DNA of 64,000 nucleotides from Chromatiales bacterium (GCA_020445565.1 JAGRGI010000031.1:19419-83418); one strand, 5' to 3'. Positions 1-47,811 are shown, counted from the stretch's first letter. The notes: generated by a model from the sequence alone, not told the origin. A program made the numbers and translations.

Positions 1-457
1 GTTGGAGCAATCGCGGGTGGTCGGCCGCCAGCAAGGTCTTGCCCTGATGCCGCAAGGCATAGGGTATCCAGGCTGGCAGCTTCTCCTTCGAGGAATCCGT
101 TAACTTCGTATCGGTCAGTTTCAACTGGCGCGGATACCCGTCGCAGGTAATCACTACGGGGGGAAACTGCGGAAAGGAGAGCAGCAGAAGGTGAGGATCG
201 TCGCCAAAACTACGGCCCAATACGATGCGATGCATATCCACCACGGGCAGCAGATCGCCGCGCAGGCTGGTCAGCCCCGCACACCAATGGGGCGCGAAGG
301 GAATGGCATAGATCTTTCGCGATGTCAGCACCTCTGCCGGTACGCCCGTTTCGATGAGGATCGAATGCGGACCGATCTGGTAGGTGAAGCGACTTGCTGC
401 TGAATTCAGCACCGCCGCTTCGCCTGAAAACGAATCGTTTTTCGCTTGCTGGTTCAT
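1..457 (-). CDS. CheW-like coupling protein (PilI-like); C-terminus runs off the window
   Basis: Open frame absent from the ORF track because it reaches the window edge. My translation from ATG 457 reads MNQQAKNDSFSGEAAVLNSAASRFTYQIGPHSILIETGVPAEVL...HWCAGLTSLRGDLLPVVDMHRIV, the CheW-type 'G.xNLRGxxxPVxD' core. GGAGG lies 6 nt upstream. It directly follows a CheY-like gene. Confidence 0.6.
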   Translation of the reverse strand, partial: MNQQAKNDSFSGEAAVLNSAASRFTYQIGPHSILIETGVPAEVLTSRKIYAIPFAPHWCAGLTSLRGDLLPVVDMHRIVLGRSFGDDPHLLLLSFPQFPPVVITCDGYPRQLKLTDTKLTDSSKEKLPAWIPYALRHQGKTLLAADHPRLLQ

Positions 458-507
458 ACCGCCCTCCTGGCCGGGAAGAAACCTGGTGGACTAGATCGAT
501 GGACGAT

Positions 508-906
508 TCACAGTGAGCGAATCTGTCCAAGTATTTCTTCGTCGGTATAGGGTTTTACGACGTAGCCGTTGGCACCAAGTTTCTTTGCCCAATCCTTGTC
601 CACCGGGTTCGATTTGCTGGAAATCATTACCACCGGAATCGAGTGGGTAACTTGATTGCGGCGAATGGCCCTGCAGGCATGATAACCGTCCCCGTCGTCC
701 ATGATGATGTCGAGCAAAATCGCATCCGGTTTCTCCTTTTCGGCGAGCACTTTGGCCTCGTTTCCGGATTGGGCACCCACTACCGTGTAGCCCGCCCCCT
801 CAAGAATCCGAGTCAGGTTCAAACGCTCGGTTACCGAATCGTCCGCAATCAAAATCTTGCGAATTGCCGGCGAAGTTCCCGCTAAGTTGGCCATGTTATC
901 CCCCAC
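508..906 (-). CDS. Single-domain CheY-like response regulator (PilG/PilH-like)
   Basis: 132 aa. Receiver signature ILIADDS...ILLDIIMDDGDG...VVMISSK...GYVVKP (acidic pocket, phospho-Asp, T/S, K-P). An alternative start lies at MANLAG (894). Confidence 0.85.
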   Translation of the reverse strand: MGDNMANLAGTSPAIRKILIADDSVTERLNLTRILEGAGYTVVGAQSGNEAKVLAEKEKPDAILLDIIMDDGDGYHACRAIRRNQVTHSIPVVMISSKSNPVDKDWAKKLGANGYVVKPYTDEEILGQIRSL

Positions 907-1097
907 TGAGTACTGCTTGGTCTAAAATCAGTGATCGTTTCTGTCTACGCGCGTCGTTTAACCGCATGCTCTTCCGCAACATCCGCACAAGGCACATGGC
1001 TCAGCAGAACCGATTCGGGCACGAGGGCCGCATGTGCAGCACCGCGCCCGGATCGGGACGGCTCAAGCCAGCCCCGAGTCCGGGGAGATACCACGGA

Positions 1098-1460
1098 CTA
1101 GATCAGCTTCGCGATATTCTGCGCCGCACGCTTTACGTCCAGGAAAACCAAACCCAGTTTGGCTGTCGGTTTGGCAAGCACGGACACCACGGCCTCATCG
1201 CCGGCATGAGTCATCAACACGTAGCCGTCGCTGCCTTTGATGAGAACCTGCTCCAGGTCGCCGCGACCCAGTTCCTGCGCGGTTCTGTCACCCAGAGACA
1301 GCATTGCCGCGCTCATGGCACCGACCCGGTCCTCGTCCATGTTCGCCGGCAGCATGGCGGCCATCATCAAGCCGTCCGTCGAGATGATGGCGGAGGCTTC
1401 AATATCCGCCGAAGAACCGTTCAGGTCACTGAGAATCGATGCCAACATGTCTTGGCGCAT
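1098..1460 (-). CDS. Roadblock/LC7 (MglB-like) domain protein
   Basis: Reads MRQDMLASILSDLNGSSADIEASAIISTDGLMMAAMLPANMDEDRVGAMSAAMLSLGDRTAQEL..GYVLMTHAGDEAVVSVL. This is the typical Roadblock pattern (x-vxGvxga.lvs.DGl.ia...d.d..aa...a). AGGAG lies 7 nt upstream of ATG 1460. The ORF-track start at 1490 is less likely. Confidence 0.75.
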   Translation of the reverse strand: MRQDMLASILSDLNGSSADIEASAIISTDGLMMAAMLPANMDEDRVGAMSAAMLSLGDRTAQELGRGDLEQVLIKGSDGYVLMTHAGDEAVVSVLAKPTAKLGLVFLDVKRAAQNIAKLI

Positions 1461-1824
1461 TTTTCTGCTCCTGATTGCACAATGAAACATGCCGCTGAAA
1501 TCCCACCCCCGGTGGTTGCCATCGGCATGTACTACTCACACCCGTCGGGTATGCTTGCGAGCCGAAGCCCCGCTTCGAGTCGCAAAAGCAATCCCGGCGG
1601 AATCACCTGGCGCCGGACAGGTTCCTGGATCGGGTCGAGCCTTGGGGCGATTTCCCTCAATCGCCTGATCAGAGTGTCCCGCGCCACCCCCGATTCGGTC
1701 CTTTATTGACCTTTATTTGATTTGTCGAGCTGCCACGGCATGCGCCCTCTCGCATACCGGATGGCTCTAAAACTTCACTTCTGCCACTCAGGCTATGCCG
1801 GTAATCGCGATGTCGTCCCGCAGA

Positions 1825-2469
1825 TCACCAACTATTGTCTACGGCATATCGGCGCGCCAACAGCCCAACCAATTCCAGGTAAGCCTTCTGGTTGAATCTG
1901 GGCCGCCCTTCGATAGCCAGAGTCAGTCGCAACCGACCAATGTAAAGGGGCCAGAATCCAAGCTGGCTGTTGCCGCTGGACTCCACCAACCCCCAGGCTT
2001 GTTCCTGCAAACCCAGACTGTTTCGCAGCACGCGCTTGTGTCTGTCATATAAGCTGCCCAGATCGGCGCTTACCGCAGAAATCGACTCGGCCACCTCATG
2101 GGCAAACCCATGAGTGCCAAGATAGAGCCCTTGCGCATCGGCCAGCAGCACATTGCCATCCTCGGAGAGTTCGGCCAGCAACTGCGGCATTCGCCCCTCC
2201 ATCGTCCCATGCTCGGCAATATACGGTTGCTCCAGACCAATGACCCACTCCAGGGATTGCATGCGTTGGAGCAATCGCAAGGTATCGTCCTCGGACAACC
2301 CGCACCACGCTGCCATACTGCCTAGCTCCGCGGACGGACTGCTCTCGCGGCAAAGCACTTCCAGAAGCAATCGCCGCGCAGGTTCCGGATGATCGTCGCG
2401 GGCCATGTAATAGGCGCCCATGGACGTCGCGCCCAGATACAGGCTGGCGTTCAGCCGCAAATCCGCCAT
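1825..2469 (-). CDS. Hypothetical protein, C-terminal half Roadblock-like
   Basis: ATG at 2469 (MADLRLNASLY...) lies 1 nt after the GTPase stop (2471-2473). The segment NVLLADAQGLYLGTHGFAHEVAESISAVSADLGSLYDR resembles a Roadblock core. The function call is inference. Confidence 0.55.
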   Translation of the reverse strand: MADLRLNASLYLGATSMGAYYMARDDHPEPARRLLLEVLCRESSPSAELGSMAAWCGLSEDDTLRLLQRMQSLEWVIGLEQPYIAEHGTMEGRMPQLLAELSEDGNVLLADAQGLYLGTHGFAHEVAESISAVSADLGSLYDRHKRVLRNSLGLQEQAWGLVESSGNSQLGFWPLYIGRLRLTLAIEGRPRFNQKAYLELVGLLARRYAVDNSW

Positions 2470-2470
2470 A

Positions 2471-3007
2471 TCAGTCGCTGATGCCAGGATCCAGGCAATA
2501 CAACAGACACTGAACCAGCTGGACCACGTCATCACGCCGATGGGCATCGACCTCCATCACCGGCAGCCGCCTCCCCGCACGTTCGATCTCCGCCTGATAT
2601 TGCATCAACGTCGGCTTATCCTTCTCGTCCATGTGAGTGACACCGATCACCACCGCGGTTCGGTCGATGAACGGACCGAAGGCCCGCAGAAAGAAATGCA
2701 AATCGCGAAAGGGCTCGATCCGGCTGTTGTCCACCAGCAACACCAGTCCGAGACCGCCTTCGGTGAGGATGTCCCACATGAAGTCAAAGCGCTCCTGTCC
2801 GGGTGTGCCGTACAGGTGTACCCGCTCGCCTTCGCGCAGCTTCATCACCCCGTAGTCCATCGCTACGGTGGTATGCGACTTGAATTGGGCCGTCATGTCG
2901 GTGGCCCGCTCGTCGGTGGAGACGATGGGCGTATCCGAGATTGCCGTGATCGCCGTCGTCTTACCTGCCCCCACCGGACCGGTGAAAATGATCTTGTAGT
3001 TGCCCAT
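2471..3007 (-). CDS. Small Ras-like GTPase, COG2229 / CvnD / MglA-like
   Basis: 178 aa. P-loop GPVGAGKTT, switch region TTVAMDYGVMKL...LYGTPGQERF, then LVLLVD and GVTHMD (an NKxD-like position). This matches the conservon CvnD-type GTPase pattern. Confidence 0.85.
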   Translation of the reverse strand: MGNYKIIFTGPVGAGKTTAITAISDTPIVSTDERATDMTAQFKSHTTVAMDYGVMKLREGERVHLYGTPGQERFDFMWDILTEGGLGLVLLVDNSRIEPFRDLHFFLRAFGPFIDRTAVVIGVTHMDEKDKPTLMQYQAEIERAGRRLPVMEVDAHRRDDVVQLVQCLLYCLDPGISD

Positions 3008-3026
3008 GGCATTCTTGTTCTGTTTC

Positions 3027-4235
3027 CTAACGACCGCTCAAGTGTCGCAAAATTCGCCCCAGCAAGCCACGCTTTGCACTCGGTTTCGGCTGCTCCACCA
3101 GCTCCACGGTCTGTGGACGGGTGCTGGCGACCAGGTCCAGAGCCAGACAGGCACTGTAGAAAGCCCCGACAAATCGGCTCTCCATCCCCAGCACCCTTGA
3201 GGTATCGCGCAGAGATACATCCTGGTGCAACCAAAGGGCGGCAATACGCGCGAACTGCGGCACGGTCAGCAGACGCGTCAGGTTCGGCCACCTTTTAAGG
3301 TGGACCACCTCATCCAGGCGGGTACCCGCCGGCACTCGTCCGCGGGCACTCCACAAGGCCAACTTCCACATCACCTGATCGATGCTGGTCATGGTCTGCC
3401 CGTCGGCATAGGACAGATGGAATTCGGGAATTGCCAGCATTTCTCCCCAGACACCGGCGGCGTCCCGACGCACGATGCTCAGTGAGCGCAGCATATTGTC
3501 CGACACATCCGTAGCGATGACTTTCGAACGAGGCAGTACGCTGAGGGTTTTCCCCCCCGTCAATTGCAGCCGTACAGGCATTTTTTCCCTGTCGGCGTCG
3601 CGTAGCGCCCGCGCCACCACCCCTTGCAGCAGTTCTGCCGGCTGGTAGAACGTCCTCGGGTCGCTTTCGTCGAGCGCCGAATTGCCGGGAGCACCGCAAC
3701 ACTCATGCGACTGCCGAATGGACAGCTCTTCGGCCTGAGAGATCTTGGTCCGTACGCGATCGAAACCGCCGAGCTTGGGCACCTTGCGCGGCCTGGGCAT
3801 CTCCGCCGTGGTTATCGGCGCAGGTGCAGGAGCGGGCGCGGGCGGCATGGGGTTGGCGATAGGCGCAGGCTTGGAAATCGCCGCAGGCACCACTATCGGC
3901 TGTTCAGCCCTGGGCGCCATGAATCTGGCGCCGAGATTGCGTCGGCAGCCGTCCAGCGCATCCAGCAAAGGCTGACAGCGTACCGGCTTGCGCAGCACCT
4001 GAACGCCCTCCATATGCTCTTCCATCACCGACAGGGCGATAATGGGTTTCCCCGGATGGCGCTGGCGGAACTCGGTGAGTAACTCCGGCCCCCACACCGA
4101 GTCCATGTCCACCACAGCGATGTCACCGTCGCCATTGGGGCTTTCCTTGTACTGGCCGCTGGCCTGACGGCCAAAAAACATGCTCATGATCGCGCGATCG
4201 CGATCAGTGAACCCAACCAATGTCACGTTAAGCAT
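3027..4235 (-). CDS. Receiver-like domain protein with Pro/Ala linker and C-terminal domain of unknown function
   Basis: 402 aa. The N-terminus VTLVGFTDRD...IAVVDMD...IIALSV...LRKPV looks like a REC fold with the K-P retained but a non-canonical acidic pocket. A PAPAPAPAP linker follows. The roughly 220-aa C-terminal domain is not recognised. Confidence 0.6.
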   Translation of the reverse strand: MLNVTLVGFTDRDRAIMSMFFGRQASGQYKESPNGDGDIAVVDMDSVWGPELLTEFRQRHPGKPIIALSVMEEHMEGVQVLRKPVRCQPLLDALDGCRRNLGARFMAPRAEQPIVVPAAISKPAPIANPMPPAPAPAPAPITTAEMPRPRKVPKLGGFDRVRTKISQAEELSIRQSHECCGAPGNSALDESDPRTFYQPAELLQGVVARALRDADREKMPVRLQLTGGKTLSVLPRSKVIATDVSDNMLRSLSIVRRDAAGVWGEMLAIPEFHLSYADGQTMTSIDQVMWKLALWSARGRVPAGTRLDEVVHLKRWPNLTRLLTVPQFARIAALWLHQDVSLRDTSRVLGMESRFVGAFYSACLALDLVASTRPQTVELVEQPKPSAKRGLLGRILRHLSGR

Positions 4236-4246
4236 ACCGCAGCTCC

Positions 4247-5020
4247 TCAGGCGCTAGCCCGCGCTTCAAGTTCGGATTCCAGATGCTCCCATGCGTCGGG
4301 AAGGGTCTCGCCTGCCCGCTGGAGACGTCTCTTGGTGCTGCGCAGTTCGTCCACCTCCCGGGTGTGACGAAAGATCTCCAAAATCTCTTCGTGCAGTTCG
4401 AGACGCTCCGGCTGCAACAGAATCGCGTTTTCGAGAACCTCGCGGGCCTCATCGATTTGCCCGCTATCCAGCCATTCGCGCGACTCTTCAAGTGCGTCCG
4501 ACGTCACCAGCGGCTGGAACTCCGCCTTTTCCACGGCCTCGACCAGACGGGCGCTGCCCCAGGCGAAGTTGCCAAGAACATTGTGGCGCCCATTGACGCG
4601 CAGGTAGGTGGAATCGCCGAAATGGTCGTCGTCACTTGCCAGATGAGCGATCTCTTGTTCGCTGAGCAGATAACGTGCCTTGTGCAGTAGACGATTGCGC
4701 AGACTGCTCCCCTGGCGACCGAGCACACGTTGGAGATCGATCAATGCATCGATCACGGCATCGCGCTCGGCGAGCTGAATATGGGTGAGAATGCGGCGGG
4801 TATGGGCGAGAAGATCCTTAGGGTGCCGCCCTACAGCAAAGGCTGCCAGACGGGCAAAACGCTCCGGGCGCATGCCGCTGGGCGGATTGAGGCCGCGGTA
4901 ATTTTCCACCAACAGCCCATCCAGCGTATCGTCGATGGGCGCGAGGCGTGTCGTGCCGGATGAGGCAACCAATAGCGCCTGCTTACCCTTTTCGGTCTCG
5001 CTGTTCTGAAACGTTCCCAT
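4247..5020 (-). CDS. Hypothetical protein (first gene of the GTPase/Roadblock/Che operon)
   Basis: 257-aa ORF with ordinary composition. Its stop lies 11 nt before the next start. The helical, TPR-like C-terminus reads EESREWLDSGQIDEAREVLENAILLQPERLELHEEILEIF. Confidence 0.55.
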   Translation of the reverse strand: MGTFQNSETEKGKQALLVASSGTTRLAPIDDTLDGLLVENYRGLNPPSGMRPERFARLAAFAVGRHPKDLLAHTRRILTHIQLAERDAVIDALIDLQRVLGRQGSSLRNRLLHKARYLLSEQEIAHLASDDDHFGDSTYLRVNGRHNVLGNFAWGSARLVEAVEKAEFQPLVTSDALEESREWLDSGQIDEAREVLENAILLQPERLELHEEILEIFRHTREVDELRSTKRRLQRAGETLPDAWEHLESELEARASA

Positions 5021-6655
5021 AGCGGATCCTGTGTTCTAATGACTTTTCATTTCCGCGAGCTTCATGCGGCTTGTCTCTGGCAGCTCTGCGAACGGCCAGT
5101 GTCGTATGGAGACCCGGGAACCGCTATACCCCTGGCAATCTCCTCATCTGCGAGTTTTCGTCATCGCCCCGACCGTGAAACGAAAACCCGGAGCTCCTTC
5201 AGAACGACCGATCCTTCCGTCGCCCGGCGGCACCCCACTCTCGAAACAACGGGAGGGTGGCGCCATAAGAAGAGCACTCCAGCGGGCACGCACAACCAAA
5301 TTTCAGGGTAAAACTCACCTGTGGCGCGAAATACTTGCCTGTCGCACCTCTGAACCCGAATTTGTTTGGTGTTTTCTTTTTGACTAGGCTGCCCTCATCG
5401 CATACCGCATCGCGACAGCCTGTAAGATCGTGAAATTATTGATGTTTTGAATAAACACCAAGATATTCCACTTCTCCCGCTAGGGATTAGAGTAACATAA
5501 TGGACTGCCTAAGCAAGCTTATTTTTCCAAAACTTCAATAGGGGAAAACCCGAAGCCTAAAACGGGTTTACCCGCAATCGTGGCTGGGATTACCCCAATT
5601 CAACAAAAACACAGAAAGATCACTCTGTTTTTGAGATTTCGGCGTCCAATTCCGTCGTCACAGACTTGCCCGTTGTTCGCTGCAGGGTGTCGAGAGGGGG
5701 AGCGGCAAGATGCCGCCTCATTGGCAGGAGGGGGTCTGGAATCAAGTAAAACACATCGAATAAGGCGCCACGCACAAATGACGCCCGGACCGCAAACCGG
5801 AATCATGAGTCGACCGCTGGCCGGCTAACGCAGGCGCACTGAACCGGTACCGGTCCTCGGTTTCTCACCTTGGTCTGGGGAAACCCGTGATAGTCGGGCT
5901 GCTTTGCGCTGCTGCTGCACCTGCCCCTCACGACTGGCCACACTGCCAAGCCCGGCGGACAGCCTATCCGCCGATTGCGGCGGCCGGTGCATGAGCGCGG
6001 GGGTGTGGAAAGGATACAGTGGCGATTCGAGCGGGTCCTGCGCCCACAGCGTCGGCGATACGCTCTGAGGGAAGATCGGGTGGATCTCTTCCAGCGGGCC
6101 ACTGTCGCCCACAACCAGGTCAAAGACACCGAGAGCCCCGGCTCGGACCTGAGGATTTGTCCGAAACGACTCCTGACCACCACCGTTTTGGGCGGACCGC
6201 CCCACTCCGAACGGTTGTGGCAGATGGCGAGAACGATCGCTCATAGCGTGTCACCCCACTTCAGCAAACCGGTTACAAGCCTGGTTGGTAAGGCAATCAA
6301 CCACGATTGGGGGGCTCTTGCACGCTGGCAGACTGCTGGCCCACAGCGGGACAACAGCAGTAGCGCTACCGAAGCGCAGCCGAGGTCGCCTCCCAAAGGC
6401 GGTTTCGCGCTCAAAAAAGCACGCCGCCCCCGTTCGACGGACCCCGAGTCGTCTTTCCATCCTCTCAATCGCCCGAACCCTACCGGTTCGGCAAGCTGTT
6501 TTCATTGTCACCGCCTCTGTAGGGCGGCGTGTTTCGAGTCTTTCGCCAGATTGACAATACGCCGATTGCGTTGCGAAGCGGCTGATTCAAATCAAATACC
6601 ACTGGGCCGTGTATGTGCTGGATGCCTGATTCCTTGCCTGTGGCTACTCTAGCAG

Positions 6656-6659
6656 CTAA
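6656..6659. repeat. Target-site duplication CTAA (left copy)
   Basis: Identical CTAA immediately outside both IS ends. IS5-group elements duplicate a 4-bp YTAR target. Confidence 0.8.
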
Positions 6660-7960
6660 CAGGCTGTTGAAATTCGCCCACCAGAGTCGACAATAGCGGT
6701 AACTCCCGGGCAGGATAGAAAACACGATGCGCGGCCCGGACCTTCAACAAGACACCCTGTTCAGCACGGCGAGCCCGGAGTCTCGGGTTCCCAAGGATCA
6801 TCCGCTGCGTCCGATTCGAGCCATGGTCGATCAGGCCCTGCGGGAACTCGATTCCCAGTTCGATGCGCTGTACTCGGTATATGGCCGAGATTCGATACCG
6901 CCGGAGAAACTGCTGCGCGCCCAGCTAGTGATGGCGCTGTATACGATTCGCAGCGAGCGGCAACTGGTCGAGCAGATCAACTACAACCTGTTGTTCCGCT
7001 GGTTCGTCGGGTTCTCGATCGATGATGAGGTCTGGAACCACTCGACGTTCACGAAGAATCGCGATCGGCTGTTGGGCGGCGACGTGGCTCGTCAGTTCTT
7101 CTCCCGGGTCCTCGGGCAGGCCGATCGGGCCGGGCTGCTCTCGAAGGAACACTTCAGCGTCGATGGCACGCTGATCGAGGCCCTGGCCTCGCACAAGAGC
7201 TACCACCCCAAGGATGAGGAGGGACCGCCGCCAGGCACCGGCGGACGCAACCCCTCGGTGGACTTCCGCGGCAAGCGGCGCAAACGTGACACCCACGAAT
7301 CAAAGACCGACAAAGATGCGCTGCTGTACACCAAGAGCAAGGGTCAGACCGCCAAACTCAGCTACCTGGGCCATCTGCTGATGGAGAACCGCCACGGGCT
7401 GGTGGTCGATACCCGCGTTACCCAGACCACGGGCACGGCCGAACGCGAGGCCGCCATCGCCATGGCCCGTGCGCTCAAGGTCGGACGACGGGTGACCCTG
7501 GGCGCGGACAAAAACTACGATACCCGAAACTTCGTCGCCGACTTGCGCCACGCCAACGTGACCCCTCATGTCGCGCAGAACACCACCAACCGCGCGTCGG
7601 CAATCGACGCCCGCACCACCCGACATCGCGGCTACGCCACGAGTCAGCGTTTTCGCAAGCGCATCGAAGAATGCTTCTGCTGGGCCAAGACCATCGGCGG
7701 GATGCGCAAAAGCCGCTTTGTCGGCCGCCAGAAACTGGACTTCTCATTCGTCCTGACCATGGCGGCCTCCAACCTGGTGCGCATGCGCAATCTGGGGGTG
7801 GCGTCATGCTGAGAGCGGCAGGTCCGTGGGAGTGGTCCGCCTACAAAGCGGAAAACTCGGACCAAGTTGCCAATTCAGGCGCTACAACCTTCATTGCTCT
7901 CGATCCCAGCTGCCCGCCGCGGCATGTGGCGGCTCAAGAACAGTACATTTCAACGGCCTG
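6660..7960 (+). mobile_element. IS5-family insertion sequence, intact (1301 bp)
   Basis: Terminal inverted repeats are CAGGCTGTTGAAAT (6660-6673) and the reverse complement of 7947-7960, CAGGCCGTTGAAAT (13/14 match). A direct 4-bp CTAA duplication flanks it at 6656-6659 and 7961-7964. It holds a single DDE transposase ORF. Confidence 0.9.
6727..7812 (+). CDS. IS5-family DDE transposase
   Basis: 361 aa. The N-terminal DUF772-type block reads HPLRPIRAMVDQAL..LYS..GRDSIPPEKLLRAQLVMALYTIRSERQLVEQINYNLLFRWFVG. The DDE triad context is FSVDGTLIEA, LGADKNYD and RIEECFCWAKT..GMRKSRFVG. Confidence 0.92.
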   Translation: MRGPDLQQDTLFSTASPESRVPKDHPLRPIRAMVDQALRELDSQFDALYSVYGRDSIPPEKLLRAQLVMALYTIRSERQLVEQINYNLLFRWFVGFSIDDEVWNHSTFTKNRDRLLGGDVARQFFSRVLGQADRAGLLSKEHFSVDGTLIEALASHKSYHPKDEEGPPPGTGGRNPSVDFRGKRRKRDTHESKTDKDALLYTKSKGQTAKLSYLGHLLMENRHGLVVDTRVTQTTGTAEREAAIAMARALKVGRRVTLGADKNYDTRNFVADLRHANVTPHVAQNTTNRASAIDARTTRHRGYATSQRFRKRIEECFCWAKTIGGMRKSRFVGRQKLDFSFVLTMAASNLVRMRNLGVASC

Positions 7961-7964
7961 CTAA
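7961..7964. repeat. Target-site duplication CTAA (right copy)
   Basis: See the left copy. Confidence 0.8.
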
Positions 7965-8283
7965 TGCTCTGGCGGGCGGCTTCTCGGCATATGGACGCAC
8001 ATTGTTGCAGTGTTACAGTGAATCGGTAGCCCAACCCAACCGTTGGCCTGAATTGCGCTGGTCCACATCTTATTCTGGCCCGATACCCGAGCCCCTTATG
8101 CAGACACAGCCAGCACACAACGCACGAAGTTAATACCTCCACAGGTTCGACACACGACCTCTGCCAGGGCTCTCAAGTTCCGACCATCAGCGCCTTGTCT
8201 GAGCCCGAAGCACTGTCGTATGCTCAGGCCATAGAAGATCTTTAAGCAGTCTTGGCGTCACACCATTCCACGAAACAGCACTC

Positions 8284-45744: not shown

Positions 45745-47811
45745 TCAACGGGCGTATTTCTTCATCATGCCGGGAATGTCGAGGATCAGGGCGATCTTGC
45801 CATCGCCGGTGATGGTGGCCCCGGCAAGCCCGGCAATGCCTTGCAACAGGGCGCCCAGCGGTTTGATCACCACCTCTTCCTGGCCGATCAGATGGTCTAC
45901 CACGAATCCGACATGAGTGCGTCCGGCCTGCACCACTACCACGTGGCCGGCGTTCTTGTCCGCTCCGAACATCCCCTCGCGAGTGAGCCATTCGCGCAGA
46001 TAGAACAAGGGAAGCGCCTTCTCCCGTACCAGAATCACCTTCTGGCCATCCACCACGTTGGTGTGGCGCAGATCCAGATTGAAGATCTCCACCACGGAGG
46101 CCAGGGGCAGGGCAAATACCTGAGAGGAGAGTTTCACCATCAGGGTCGGCATGATGGCAAGAGTCAGGGGCACCTTGATGACGATGCGCGAGCCCTGGCC
46201 GTATTCCGATTCCACCTCCACAGTACCGTTCATCTGCACGATACGGGTCTTGACCACGTCCATGCCGACGCCACGGCCGGACACGTCGGAAATTTCCGTC
46301 TTGGTTGAAAAGCCTGGGGCGAAGATCAGATTGAACGCCTCGTGGTCGTCCAGGCGGGAGGCGGCCTCCTCATCCATCATGCCCTTTTCCACCGCTTTGC
46401 GACGTAGCACATTGGCATCCATACCCTTGCCGTCGTCCTCGATGGACAACATGATGTGATCGCCCTCCTGACGTGCCGCCAGGACCACCTTGCCCTTGCG
46501 AGGCTTACCCGCCGCCTCGCGCACATCGGGACCTTCCACGCCATGATCCACGGCATTGCGCACCAGATGCACCAGGGGATCGGCCAGGGCCTCCACCAGG
46601 TTCTTGTCCAGATCGGTATCCTCGCCCTGCATCTCCAGATCCACTTCCTTATTGAGGCTGCGGGCCAGGTCGCGAACCACCCGGGGAAAACGGCCGAAGA
46701 CCTTCTTGATGGCCTGCATACGCGTCTTCATGGCGGCCAATTGCAGGTCTGAGGTGACCACATCCAGGTTGGCGACCGCCTTGGCCGCCTCCTCGTCCTG
46801 CATGGTGGCCTTGAGGGTGTGCAGACGATTACGGGCCAGTACCAGTTCGCCCACCAGATTCATGATGTCGTCCAAGACCTTGGTATCCACCCGCACCGTG
46901 GTTTCCGCCACCGCCTTCGGTACCGCTGGCGCGGCGGCGGCCGGGGCCTGAGACGGCTGCTTGGCTACCGGAACCGGCGGTTTCGGGGGTTGCGGAGGCG
47001 GTGACTTTGCCACCGGCTTTTCTGGCGGCGGGGGCGGTGGCGCGGCCGCTGGCGGTTCCGTGTTTACGGAGCCGCTGAACTGGCCCTTGCCATGCAATTG
47101 GTCGAGCAGGTCCTCGAACTCGTCGTCGGTGATCTCGTCCGAGGAATTGCCCGGCTCCGGTACGGCACTGGCGTCCGCCCCCTGGAACTTGCCCTTTCCA
47201 TGCAGTTCGTCCAGCAGGTTCTCGAACTCTTCATCGGTAATCAGATCGCCACCGGATGGCGCCTTTGCCAGGGTTTGCGGCGCTTGCTCCTCGACCGCGT
47301 CCAGCAGGGCCTCGAATTCCTGATCGGTGATGTCTCCCTCGGCATCGGGCTCTTGCGCCTCCTGCACCGCTTCGCGCTCTGACGACGGCGGGGCGGCGGC
47401 TTCGGCCACGGGCTCGGCATCCTGGGCTTGGGCCAGTTCTTCCAGTTCGCTCAACAGACTGGGGTCGGCGGGGTCTGGCGCCTGACCGGAGCGCACTTGG
47501 TCGAACATGACGTTGACCACGTCCAGCACTTGCAGAACCGCATCCATCAGACGGGCATCGACCCGGCGCTGCCCCTGACGCAGCACGTTGAAAACGTCCT
47601 CCGCCCGGTGGCAGACATGGACCAGGGGATCGATGGCCAGGAAACCGGCTCCGCCTTTGACGGTATGGAAGGAGCGGAAGACGGCATTGAGCAGATCCTG
47701 ATCGTCTGGCCGTTGCTCCAGATCCACCAATTGCTCGCCCAATTGCTCCAGGATTTCGCCTGCCTCTATGAGGAAGTCCTGCAGAATTTCGTCGTCGACG
47801 TTGATGTTCAT
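45745..47811 (-). CDS. cheA: Chemotaxis histidine kinase CheA
   Basis: 688 aa. Hpt FRSFHTVKGGAGF, repeated acidic (D/E)EFExLLDxLHGKG segments, an HATPase domain and a C-terminal CheW-like domain. Confidence 0.92.
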   Translation of the reverse strand: MNINVDDEILQDFLIEAGEILEQLGEQLVDLEQRPDDQDLLNAVFRSFHTVKGGAGFLAIDPLVHVCHRAEDVFNVLRQGQRRVDARLMDAVLQVLDVVNVMFDQVRSGQAPDPADPSLLSELEELAQAQDAEPVAEAAAPPSSEREAVQEAQEPDAEGDITDQEFEALLDAVEEQAPQTLAKAPSGGDLITDEEFENLLDELHGKGKFQGADASAVPEPGNSSDEITDDEFEDLLDQLHGKGQFSGSVNTEPPAAAPPPPPPEKPVAKSPPPQPPKPPVPVAKQPSQAPAAAAPAVPKAVAETTVRVDTKVLDDIMNLVGELVLARNRLHTLKATMQDEEAAKAVANLDVVTSDLQLAAMKTRMQAIKKVFGRFPRVVRDLARSLNKEVDLEMQGEDTDLDKNLVEALADPLVHLVRNAVDHGVEGPDVREAAGKPRKGKVVLAARQEGDHIMLSIEDDGKGMDANVLRRKAVEKGMMDEEAASRLDDHEAFNLIFAPGFSTKTEISDVSGRGVGMDVVKTRIVQMNGTVEVESEYGQGSRIVIKVPLTLAIMPTLMVKLSSQVFALPLASVVEIFNLDLRHTNVVDGQKVILVREKALPLFYLREWLTREGMFGADKNAGHVVVVQAGRTHVGFVVDHLIGQEEVVIKPLGALLQGIAGLAGATITGDGKIALILDIPGMMKKYAR

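Follow-up and report, generated by a model that had tools for sequence, protein, structure and literature searches.

Group 3 MglA systems were described in beta- and gamma-Proteobacteria as sets of genes for an MglA GTPase, one or two MglB proteins and a protein that combines a receiver (REC)-like domain, a variable linker and a C-terminus resembling a winged helix-turn-helix (wHTH) (PMC4316618, Wuichet & Sogaard-Andersen 2015, Genome Biol Evol). The wHTH of this C-terminal region was predicted by the same authors, who also proposed a transcriptional output. The only experimental hints on Group 3 systems come from a study of Snodgrassella, according to which they have as a rule three mglB genes, of which mglB-1 is distant, mglB-2 is adjacent and mglB-3 is an orphan closer to mglB-2; mutation of the orphan mglB changed colonisation and soft-agar spreading (PMC11112851). 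The locus described here belongs to a Chromatiales bacterium (GCA_020445565.1) and lies at positions 1-5020 of a window of 64,000 nucleotides (JAGRGI010000031.1:19419-83418, that is contig C117:19419-83418 of the source genome). It joins the known Group 3 MglA core, genes g01 to g05, to a portable chemosensory (che) cassette resembling the Pil-Chp system, which begins with g06 and g07 and is termed cassette B below. This is not a conserved fusion: the junction between g05 and the cheY gene g06 is unique, its exact arrangement being found in no other genome searched.

All seven genes that the initial annotation had placed in one direction along this stretch are present on the minus strand, and the identities given to them were correct according to Pfam and, for g02 and g04, to AlphaFold2 models searched with Foldseek. 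The spacing is somewhat different from the five short gaps and single gap of about 360 bp reported there. From g01 to g07 the intergenic gaps measure 11, 19, 1, 364, 191-203 and 50 nt, so that four are short and two are long. The count of short gaps was thus off by one, and the gap that had been missed, of 191-203 nt, is the very one that separates the GTPase genes from the che genes.

By its parts, their order and the published description, the block g01 to g05 can be assigned to the Group 3 MglA systems, of which it represents the core. The initial annotation had not recognised the GTPase/Roadblock module as known, and it turns out to have been catalogued in 2015 under this name (PMC4316618). 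The MglA-family GTPase of the description is represented by g03 (2471-3007, 178 aa). Pfam, run on the proteins of the locus at a cut-off of E 0.01 and again in relaxed form to E 10, matched g03 to PF03029 (2e-12), with Roc and Ras matches below the cut-off. The alignment gives the motifs GPVGAGKT for G1, TTVAMDYG for switch I, YGTPGQE, with its Gln, for G3 and THMD for G4, and at this last position the family carries T(R/H/Q)MD instead of NKxD, with TRMD or TQMD in relatives. With a profile of g03, a full-length match to Thermus MglA was obtained (3-161 against 14-179, E 4e-6), and a partial one to Rab/Sec4. More than 6900 homologues were found, at 60-72% identity across Gammaproteobacteria; the range of the relatives, Gammaproteobacteria together with Zoogloea, fits the published beta/gamma distribution.

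The REC-like/linker protein of the description, whose C-terminus is conserved, corresponds to g02 (3027-4235, 402 aa); in the published account it is the 'conserved protein of unknown function'. Like g01 and g04, it had no Pfam match at 0.01. Its AlphaFold2 model, with a predicted local distance difference test score (pLDDT) of 86.7, contains a low-confidence, disordered linker at residues 107-157, which is Pro-rich and variable. The N-terminus has a REC fold, for which Foldseek returned the receivers of RssB, CheY and PmrA. All 31 aligned orthologues share D45, at the position of the phospho-acceptor Asp, and K83-P84, a Lys-Pro that follows strand 5, and the middle section is variable. The C-terminal domain is well modelled and has three helices and a strand at its end (residues 326-372); no structural match to a wHTH was obtained for it, Foldseek giving REC matches only.

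The one or two adjacent MglB proteins correspond to g04 and g05. The start of g04 (1825-2469, 214 aa) lies 1 nt after the stop of g03, and it encodes a long MglB of the mglB-1 type with an N-terminal helical/winged extension. Its model, built with 30 orthologues (pLDDT 89.9, predicted template modelling score 0.86), has the Roadblock fold in the C-terminal half, and the top 50 Foldseek matches in the PDB were Roadblock, MglB, p14-MP1 and Ragulator chains, at a probability of 1.0. The short MglB g05, of the mglB-2 type (1098-1460, 120 aa), matched Robl_LC7 at 2.7e-16 and is 70-86% identical to orthologues within such modules; its likely start is the ATG at 1460, preceded by AGGAG. Finally, g01 (4247-5020, 257 aa) is the conserved first gene of the module, whose helical product has a weakly TPR-like C-terminus (TPR_16/TPR_2 matches at E 0.013-0.18 in the relaxed search).

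A scan limited to a single genome for each species gave at least 596 loci with relatives of the GTPase, and the best 80, all from other species, were analysed. The order g01-g02-g03-g04-g05 is common to these 80, with g01 orthologues ahead of g02 in 65 of them, and in most a PAS gene and a PhnD-like gene then follow. The loci come from Methylococcales, Chromatiales, Halothiobacillaceae, Sedimenticolaceae, Competibacteraceae and Thiotrichaceae. In a class-wide sample of 400 genomes, in which 60 loci were scanned for neighbours, the GTPase is present in 54 genomes (about 13%). In about 135 other gammaproteobacterial loci, what comes after the module core is stand-alone sensor proteins, not che genes.

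The first gene of this sensor tail encodes a stand-alone PAS protein of 158 aa that matches the PAS domain of the Aer aerotaxis receptor (2e-32) and next the FAD-PAS proteins MmoS and NifL. The second encodes a PhnD-like protein (Phosphonate-bd, 250 aa) in which the domain starts at residue 5-12; it has no evident signal peptide and is therefore probably cytoplasmic. In some loci, a protoglobin or a CZB protein is found instead at the same position. Overall, a PAS, PhnD-like, protoglobin or CZB gene lies within 1.5 kb of about 100 of the 112 Roadblock genes of the mglB-2 type, and the orphan Roadblock copies of other genomes are nearly always accompanied by a protoglobin, with single cases of PAS or CZB. 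These domains are typical input domains of chemoreceptors, here without a signalling domain. The recurrent pairing of Roadblock and sensor across loci suggests that the short MglB receives the sensor input. Among the orphan mglB-2-type genes, those at L103-L106, L109, L110, L112, L114 and L115 have a protoglobin partner, once a PAS, and lie away from any GTPase gene. As for the space between g04 and g05, relatives mostly have 30-100 nt there, or else a gene for a protoglobin or a PhnD-like protein.

In the genome studied, the place of this tail behind g05 is taken by cheY: the che cassette occupies the usual sensor slot of the module. The sensor genes themselves are present on another contig, behind a second MglB (C196:10784-11146, locus L004) that is 74% identical to g05. 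This gene is followed by an Aer-type PAS gene (C196:10252-10758) and a gene for the PhnD-like protein (C196:9503-10270), the two usual tail genes. In trees, g05 and g03 both cluster with the in-module copies of Sedimenticolaceae, and the MglB of C196 clusters elsewhere; the Roadblock tree, with its 120 columns, is poorly resolved and shows only that the two copies of this genome are non-sister. As they fall into different groups, g05 and the C196 copy would not be recent duplicates. The common placement of g05 and g03 with Sedimenticolaceae likewise indicates that the native module would have kept g05 and lost the sensor tail only. The trio on C196 has a Tex gene upstream and stands convergent with a class I adenylate cyclase gene (C196:6689-9496), just upstream of which is a PAS-GGDEF gene (C196:5854-6696).

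The che cassette opens with g06 (508-906, alternative start 894), a single-domain CheY-like response regulator (Response_reg 4.4e-25), and goes on with g07 (1-457), a divergent CheW that runs past the left end of the window and whose full protein of 162 aa matches CheW at 6.5e-08. It had been predicted that the operon continues leftwards into a Pil-Chp-like MCP (methyl-accepting chemotaxis protein)/CheA system, and this is what contig C117 holds, on the same strand as g01 to g07. A periplasmic binding protein (PBP) of the Peripla_BP_6 family (C117:18098-19366, 423 aa) is followed by a PilJ-like MCP with HAMP and MCPsignal domains (C117:16246-18078, 611 aa), a ChpA-like CheA-REC of the architecture Hpt-HATPase-CheW-REC (C117:13374-16238, 955 aa) and g11, a response regulator made of an N-domain and a REC (C117:12480-13352, corresponding to L003:7477-8352; 291 aa). 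After g11 come yceD, plsX and fabHDG, and no CheR or CheB domain was detected by Pfam between g06 and yceD.

The closest paralogues of the cassette MCP and CheA belong to the canonical PilG/H/J-ChpA-like cluster of the same genome, on contig C2. The MCP scores 169 bits against that of C2 and at most 93 against the other MCPs of the genome, and the CheA scores 333 bits against the ChpA-like protein and at most 195 against the other CheAs. The MCP also aligns over its full length with PilJ-type genes of other families, at 35-41% identity. Of the marks of the Pil-Chp or type IV pilus (Tfp) class, the cassette has the PilJ-like MCP and the ChpA-like hybrid CheA. It has neither the pair of PilG and PilH nor PilK/ChpB (CheR/CheB), and carries a single CheY upstream and an N-domain+REC regulator downstream. 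The genome encodes seven ATPases of the PilB/PilT/GspE family.

Cassette B is also conserved independently, in the order CheY-CheW-PBP-MCP-CheA/REC-regulator, Thiothrix being one example. Protein identities are 51-72% to Thiothrix lacustris and 38-67% at other loci; g06 is 61-72% identical to the first gene of the cassette in Thiothrix and metagenomes, against 38-39% to the PilG/PilH-like genes on C2. The genes flanking it are different each time (among others dnaX, pgi and macB), and cassette B is a separately conserved, portable Pil-Chp-like cassette. No orthologue of the CheW g07 was found among 60 comparison genomes of the same class, none of which is a closer relative. In the metagenome loci L177-L256, a Peripla_BP_6 PBP is a regular member of a large Pil-Chp-like set with the order REC-REC-CheW-PBP-MCP-CheA, and this subgroup of PilJ-type receptors seems to have a periplasmic binding protein as its standard partner. 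Within the window, a further CheA-like gene (45754-46731, minus strand), 34% identical to the cassette CheA over 332 residues, belongs to another che cluster.

The two blocks meet at 907-1097, and scans of the minus strand found no terminator-like or sigma-70-like site in this junction or in the 364-nt gap between g04 and g05 (1461-1824). Only a weak TAGACA-17-TAGACC was seen by eye upstream of cheY, and the junction has no similarity to the regions upstream of the cassette elsewhere. The 364-nt gap holds neither an open reading frame (ORF) nor a gene remnant (blastx, blastn); more widely, gene remnants were found neither in the two long gaps nor upstream of g01, and these regions have no similarity to C196 or to the cassette-B loci. 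Inside the 364-nt gap, an AT-richer patch contains the direct repeat AATAAAGG twice, 10 nt apart (window 1700-1720, minus strand), which could be an internal promoter or a regulatory site. On the other side of the block, an intact IS5-family transposase ORF of 361 aa lies at 6727-7812, 1.7 kb upstream of g01, in a stretch (5021-8283) that is otherwise gene-poor.

A second association of the two kinds of system was found elsewhere. At three loci from three GTDB families (L168, L171 and L172, in genomes G300, G158 and G331, with a locus GC of 51%, 68% and 46%), a short module made of a g02-like gene, a GTPase and a Roadblock gene stands head-to-head with a divergent pilG-pilH-pilI-pilJ-chpA cluster (REC-REC-CheW-MCP-CheA/REC). 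In the tree, the GTPases of these loci are grouped in a single clade (support 88/89) that lies far from g03. The present locus and this divergent clade are two independent adjacencies, so that Group 3-type modules have come to lie beside che clusters of the pilus type on two or more occasions. A rough estimate, framing-dependent and post hoc, puts the immediate adjacencies to a pilus-type cluster expected by chance at about 0.1 in about 70 loci. For any che cluster within 3 kb, about one adjacency would be expected in about 70 loci, with 2-21 CheW-domain matches per genome; this figure is also rough.

The reading preferred here is that two separately conserved cassettes were joined in this lineage and that the che cassette acts as the sensor of the switch, a proposal whose chances appear evenly balanced. 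Functional coupling as such, in which the che cassette would be a complex sensor feeding the GTPase switch, is plausible, at a little under an even chance. A ligand-loaded binding protein would signal to the MCP and through it to CheA; phosphorylated CheY (g06) and/or g11 would then act on MglB/MglA. The GTP state of g03 thereby set would govern type IV pilus polarity or motility, or an output dependent on g02. The che cassette would in this way have replaced the stand-alone sensors of the module. The coupling would be analogous to that of Frz via FrzX/FrzZ on MglB/MglA in Myxococcus, where the action of Frz on MglA/MglB is an established precedent. It finds support in the position of the cassette in the sensor slot, in the divergent adjacency of the short modules, in the lack of a terminator at the junction and in a domain likeness between g11 and g02. 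Indeed, the N-terminal domain of g11 matches the REC-like domain of g02 with an hhalign probability of 85.7% (E 5e-6), a moderate signal, and neither domain is a normal receiver to Pfam; the canonical receiver of g11 itself gave no listed match to g02 in the profile-profile comparison.

Nevertheless, several results weigh against the coupling. That the 'direct operon fusion' of the initial annotation is a conserved feature does not hold. No che cluster (CheW, MCP, CheA) was found beside a module of the long type, either in the best 80 of the at least 596 loci or in the 60-locus class sample. Conversely, genes of the GTPase module were absent near the cassette at 4 genomic loci and at 80 metagenomic loci, the latter found with the binding protein; 32 of these had more than 1.5 kb of DNA upstream of the first che gene, which makes 36 informative loci. 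Strict orthologues of cassette B occur in 2 of the 400 genomes, both of one family, and are too few for an analysis of co-occurrence with the GTPase. The junction is 191-203 nt long and an internal promoter ahead of the cassette is likely, since cassette B begins its own transcription units elsewhere. The region is also prone to rearrangement because of the IS5 element 1.7 kb upstream of g01, and the N-termini of g11 and g02 are not significantly similar by BLASTP (E 32). The initial annotation had named independent promoters or terminators between the blocks, together with an unconserved linkage, as what would speak against its reading: half of this was found, the linkage being unconserved and the junction measuring about 200 nt. 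Apparent CheA matches near some long-type modules proved to be lone REC domains. At one locus of a Thiodiazotropha genome (L028:6067-7928), a lone MCP and a REC gene lie directly upstream of g01.

The adjacency may instead be accidental: a rearrangement would have removed the PAS/PhnD tail and brought in, behind g05, a Pil-Chp-like cassette that is autonomous and transcribed from a promoter of its own, with no cross-talk beyond a possible shared role in surface motility. Such an accident is a serious contender, though somewhat less than evenly probable. The linkage found in no other genome, the length of the junction, the portability of a cassette whose neighbours change from locus to locus, the transposase nearby and the one che adjacency within 3 kb roughly expected by chance are all in keeping with it. 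It fits less well with the fact that the cassette landed co-directionally in the exact slot of the sensor genes and that the displaced sensors kept an MglB copy of their own. Moreover, the independent adjacency of MglA3 and Pil-Chp is conserved over three families, and in both adjacencies the che genes are of the pilus type and not of the flagellar classes.

The flow could also be reversed, with g02 as a GTPase-controlled transcription factor, or g03-GTP as a localisation factor, setting the expression or the polar placement of the che array. The wHTH predicted in the g02 family with its proposed transcriptional output (PMC4316618), the three helices and strand modelled at residues 326-372 and the che cassette immediately downstream would agree with this. 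The wHTH was not confirmed by Foldseek, however, the about 135 other loci have no che genes nearby to regulate, and the invariable companions of the module are sensors, which speaks for a module that takes in signals instead of passing them on to receptors; this possibility is quite improbable. A more general version of the coupling, in which the short MglB would be a docking adaptor that lets interchangeable sensors (an Aer-type PAS, a protoglobin or a CZB protein) set Group 3 MglA, with a Pil-Chp-like phosphorelay via CheY~P in their place here, is on the unlikely side. If true, the locus would be an independently evolved, single-locus gammaproteobacterial counterpart of the Frz-MglB/MglA circuit of Myxococcus and a compact system for studying chemosensing coupled to a G-protein polarity switch.

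With respect to the inputs of Group 3 MglA, the locus contributes a single case, in which the position usual for redox, oxygen or zinc sensors holds an entire chemosensory cassette of the pilus type. The cassette in the sensor slot and the second adjacency to pilGHIJ-chpA suggest that Group 3 GTPase switches may belong to type IV pilus control and may take chemoreceptor-style inputs. If the sensor role of the cassette is true, the Frz-Mgl principle extends beyond Myxococcus; if it is false, what remains is two ordinary cassettes brought together by rearrangement.

Compared with known systems, the locus shares several features with the Frz pathway acting on MglA/MglB/RomR in Myxococcus xanthus. 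In each, the che pathway contains a hybrid CheA and gives its output through single-domain proteins of the CheY type, the Ras-like GTPase is accompanied by a Roadblock GTPase-activating protein, and a partner containing a REC domain has a linker rich in Pro. The logic proposed here, CheY~P acting on MglB/MglA for pilus polarity, is also the same. On the contrary, Myxococcus MglA is of Group 1, Frz has homologues of CheR and CheB and this cassette has neither, and the mglBA and frz genes are unlinked in Myxococcus (PMC4316618) while their counterparts are linked here.

The actinobacterial conservons CvnA-D, with Group 2 MglA, resemble the locus in that a small GTPase of the PF03029 type, also the best Pfam match of g03, stands with a Roadblock partner in a kinase-linked signalling cassette. 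Their gene order and taxonomy are different. Conservon membership of g01 to g05 was ruled out, as a CvnA-type kinase and DUF742 (CvnC) are missing: Pfam found no HATPase, HisKA or DUF742 in g01 to g05, the nearest kinase being the CheA of the separate cassette, and no PATAN/DUF4388 or DUF742 in g02, g04 and g11 up to E 10.

The Pil-Chp system of Pseudomonas and relatives is close to cassette B in its MCP and CheA, which are nearest to the PilJ- and ChpA-like proteins of the genome, and in a hybrid CheA with Hpt and C-terminal REC. The cassette differs by the lack of PilK/ChpB, by one CheY and a terminal N-domain regulator in place of the PilG/PilH pair, by a Peripla_BP_6 protein between CheW and MCP, and by the single Hpt that Pfam detected in its CheA. 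It is a second, paralogous cluster besides the canonical one on contig C2.

Finally, the parts and gene order of the GTPase block are those of published Group 3 MglA systems, and g04, g05 and the C196 copy fit the mglB-1/-2/-3 pattern of Snodgrassella. The unit is larger here and in most relatives than the published one, as it begins with a TPR-like gene and ends in a sensor tail, and it is at this locus alone that a six-gene che cassette replaces that tail.

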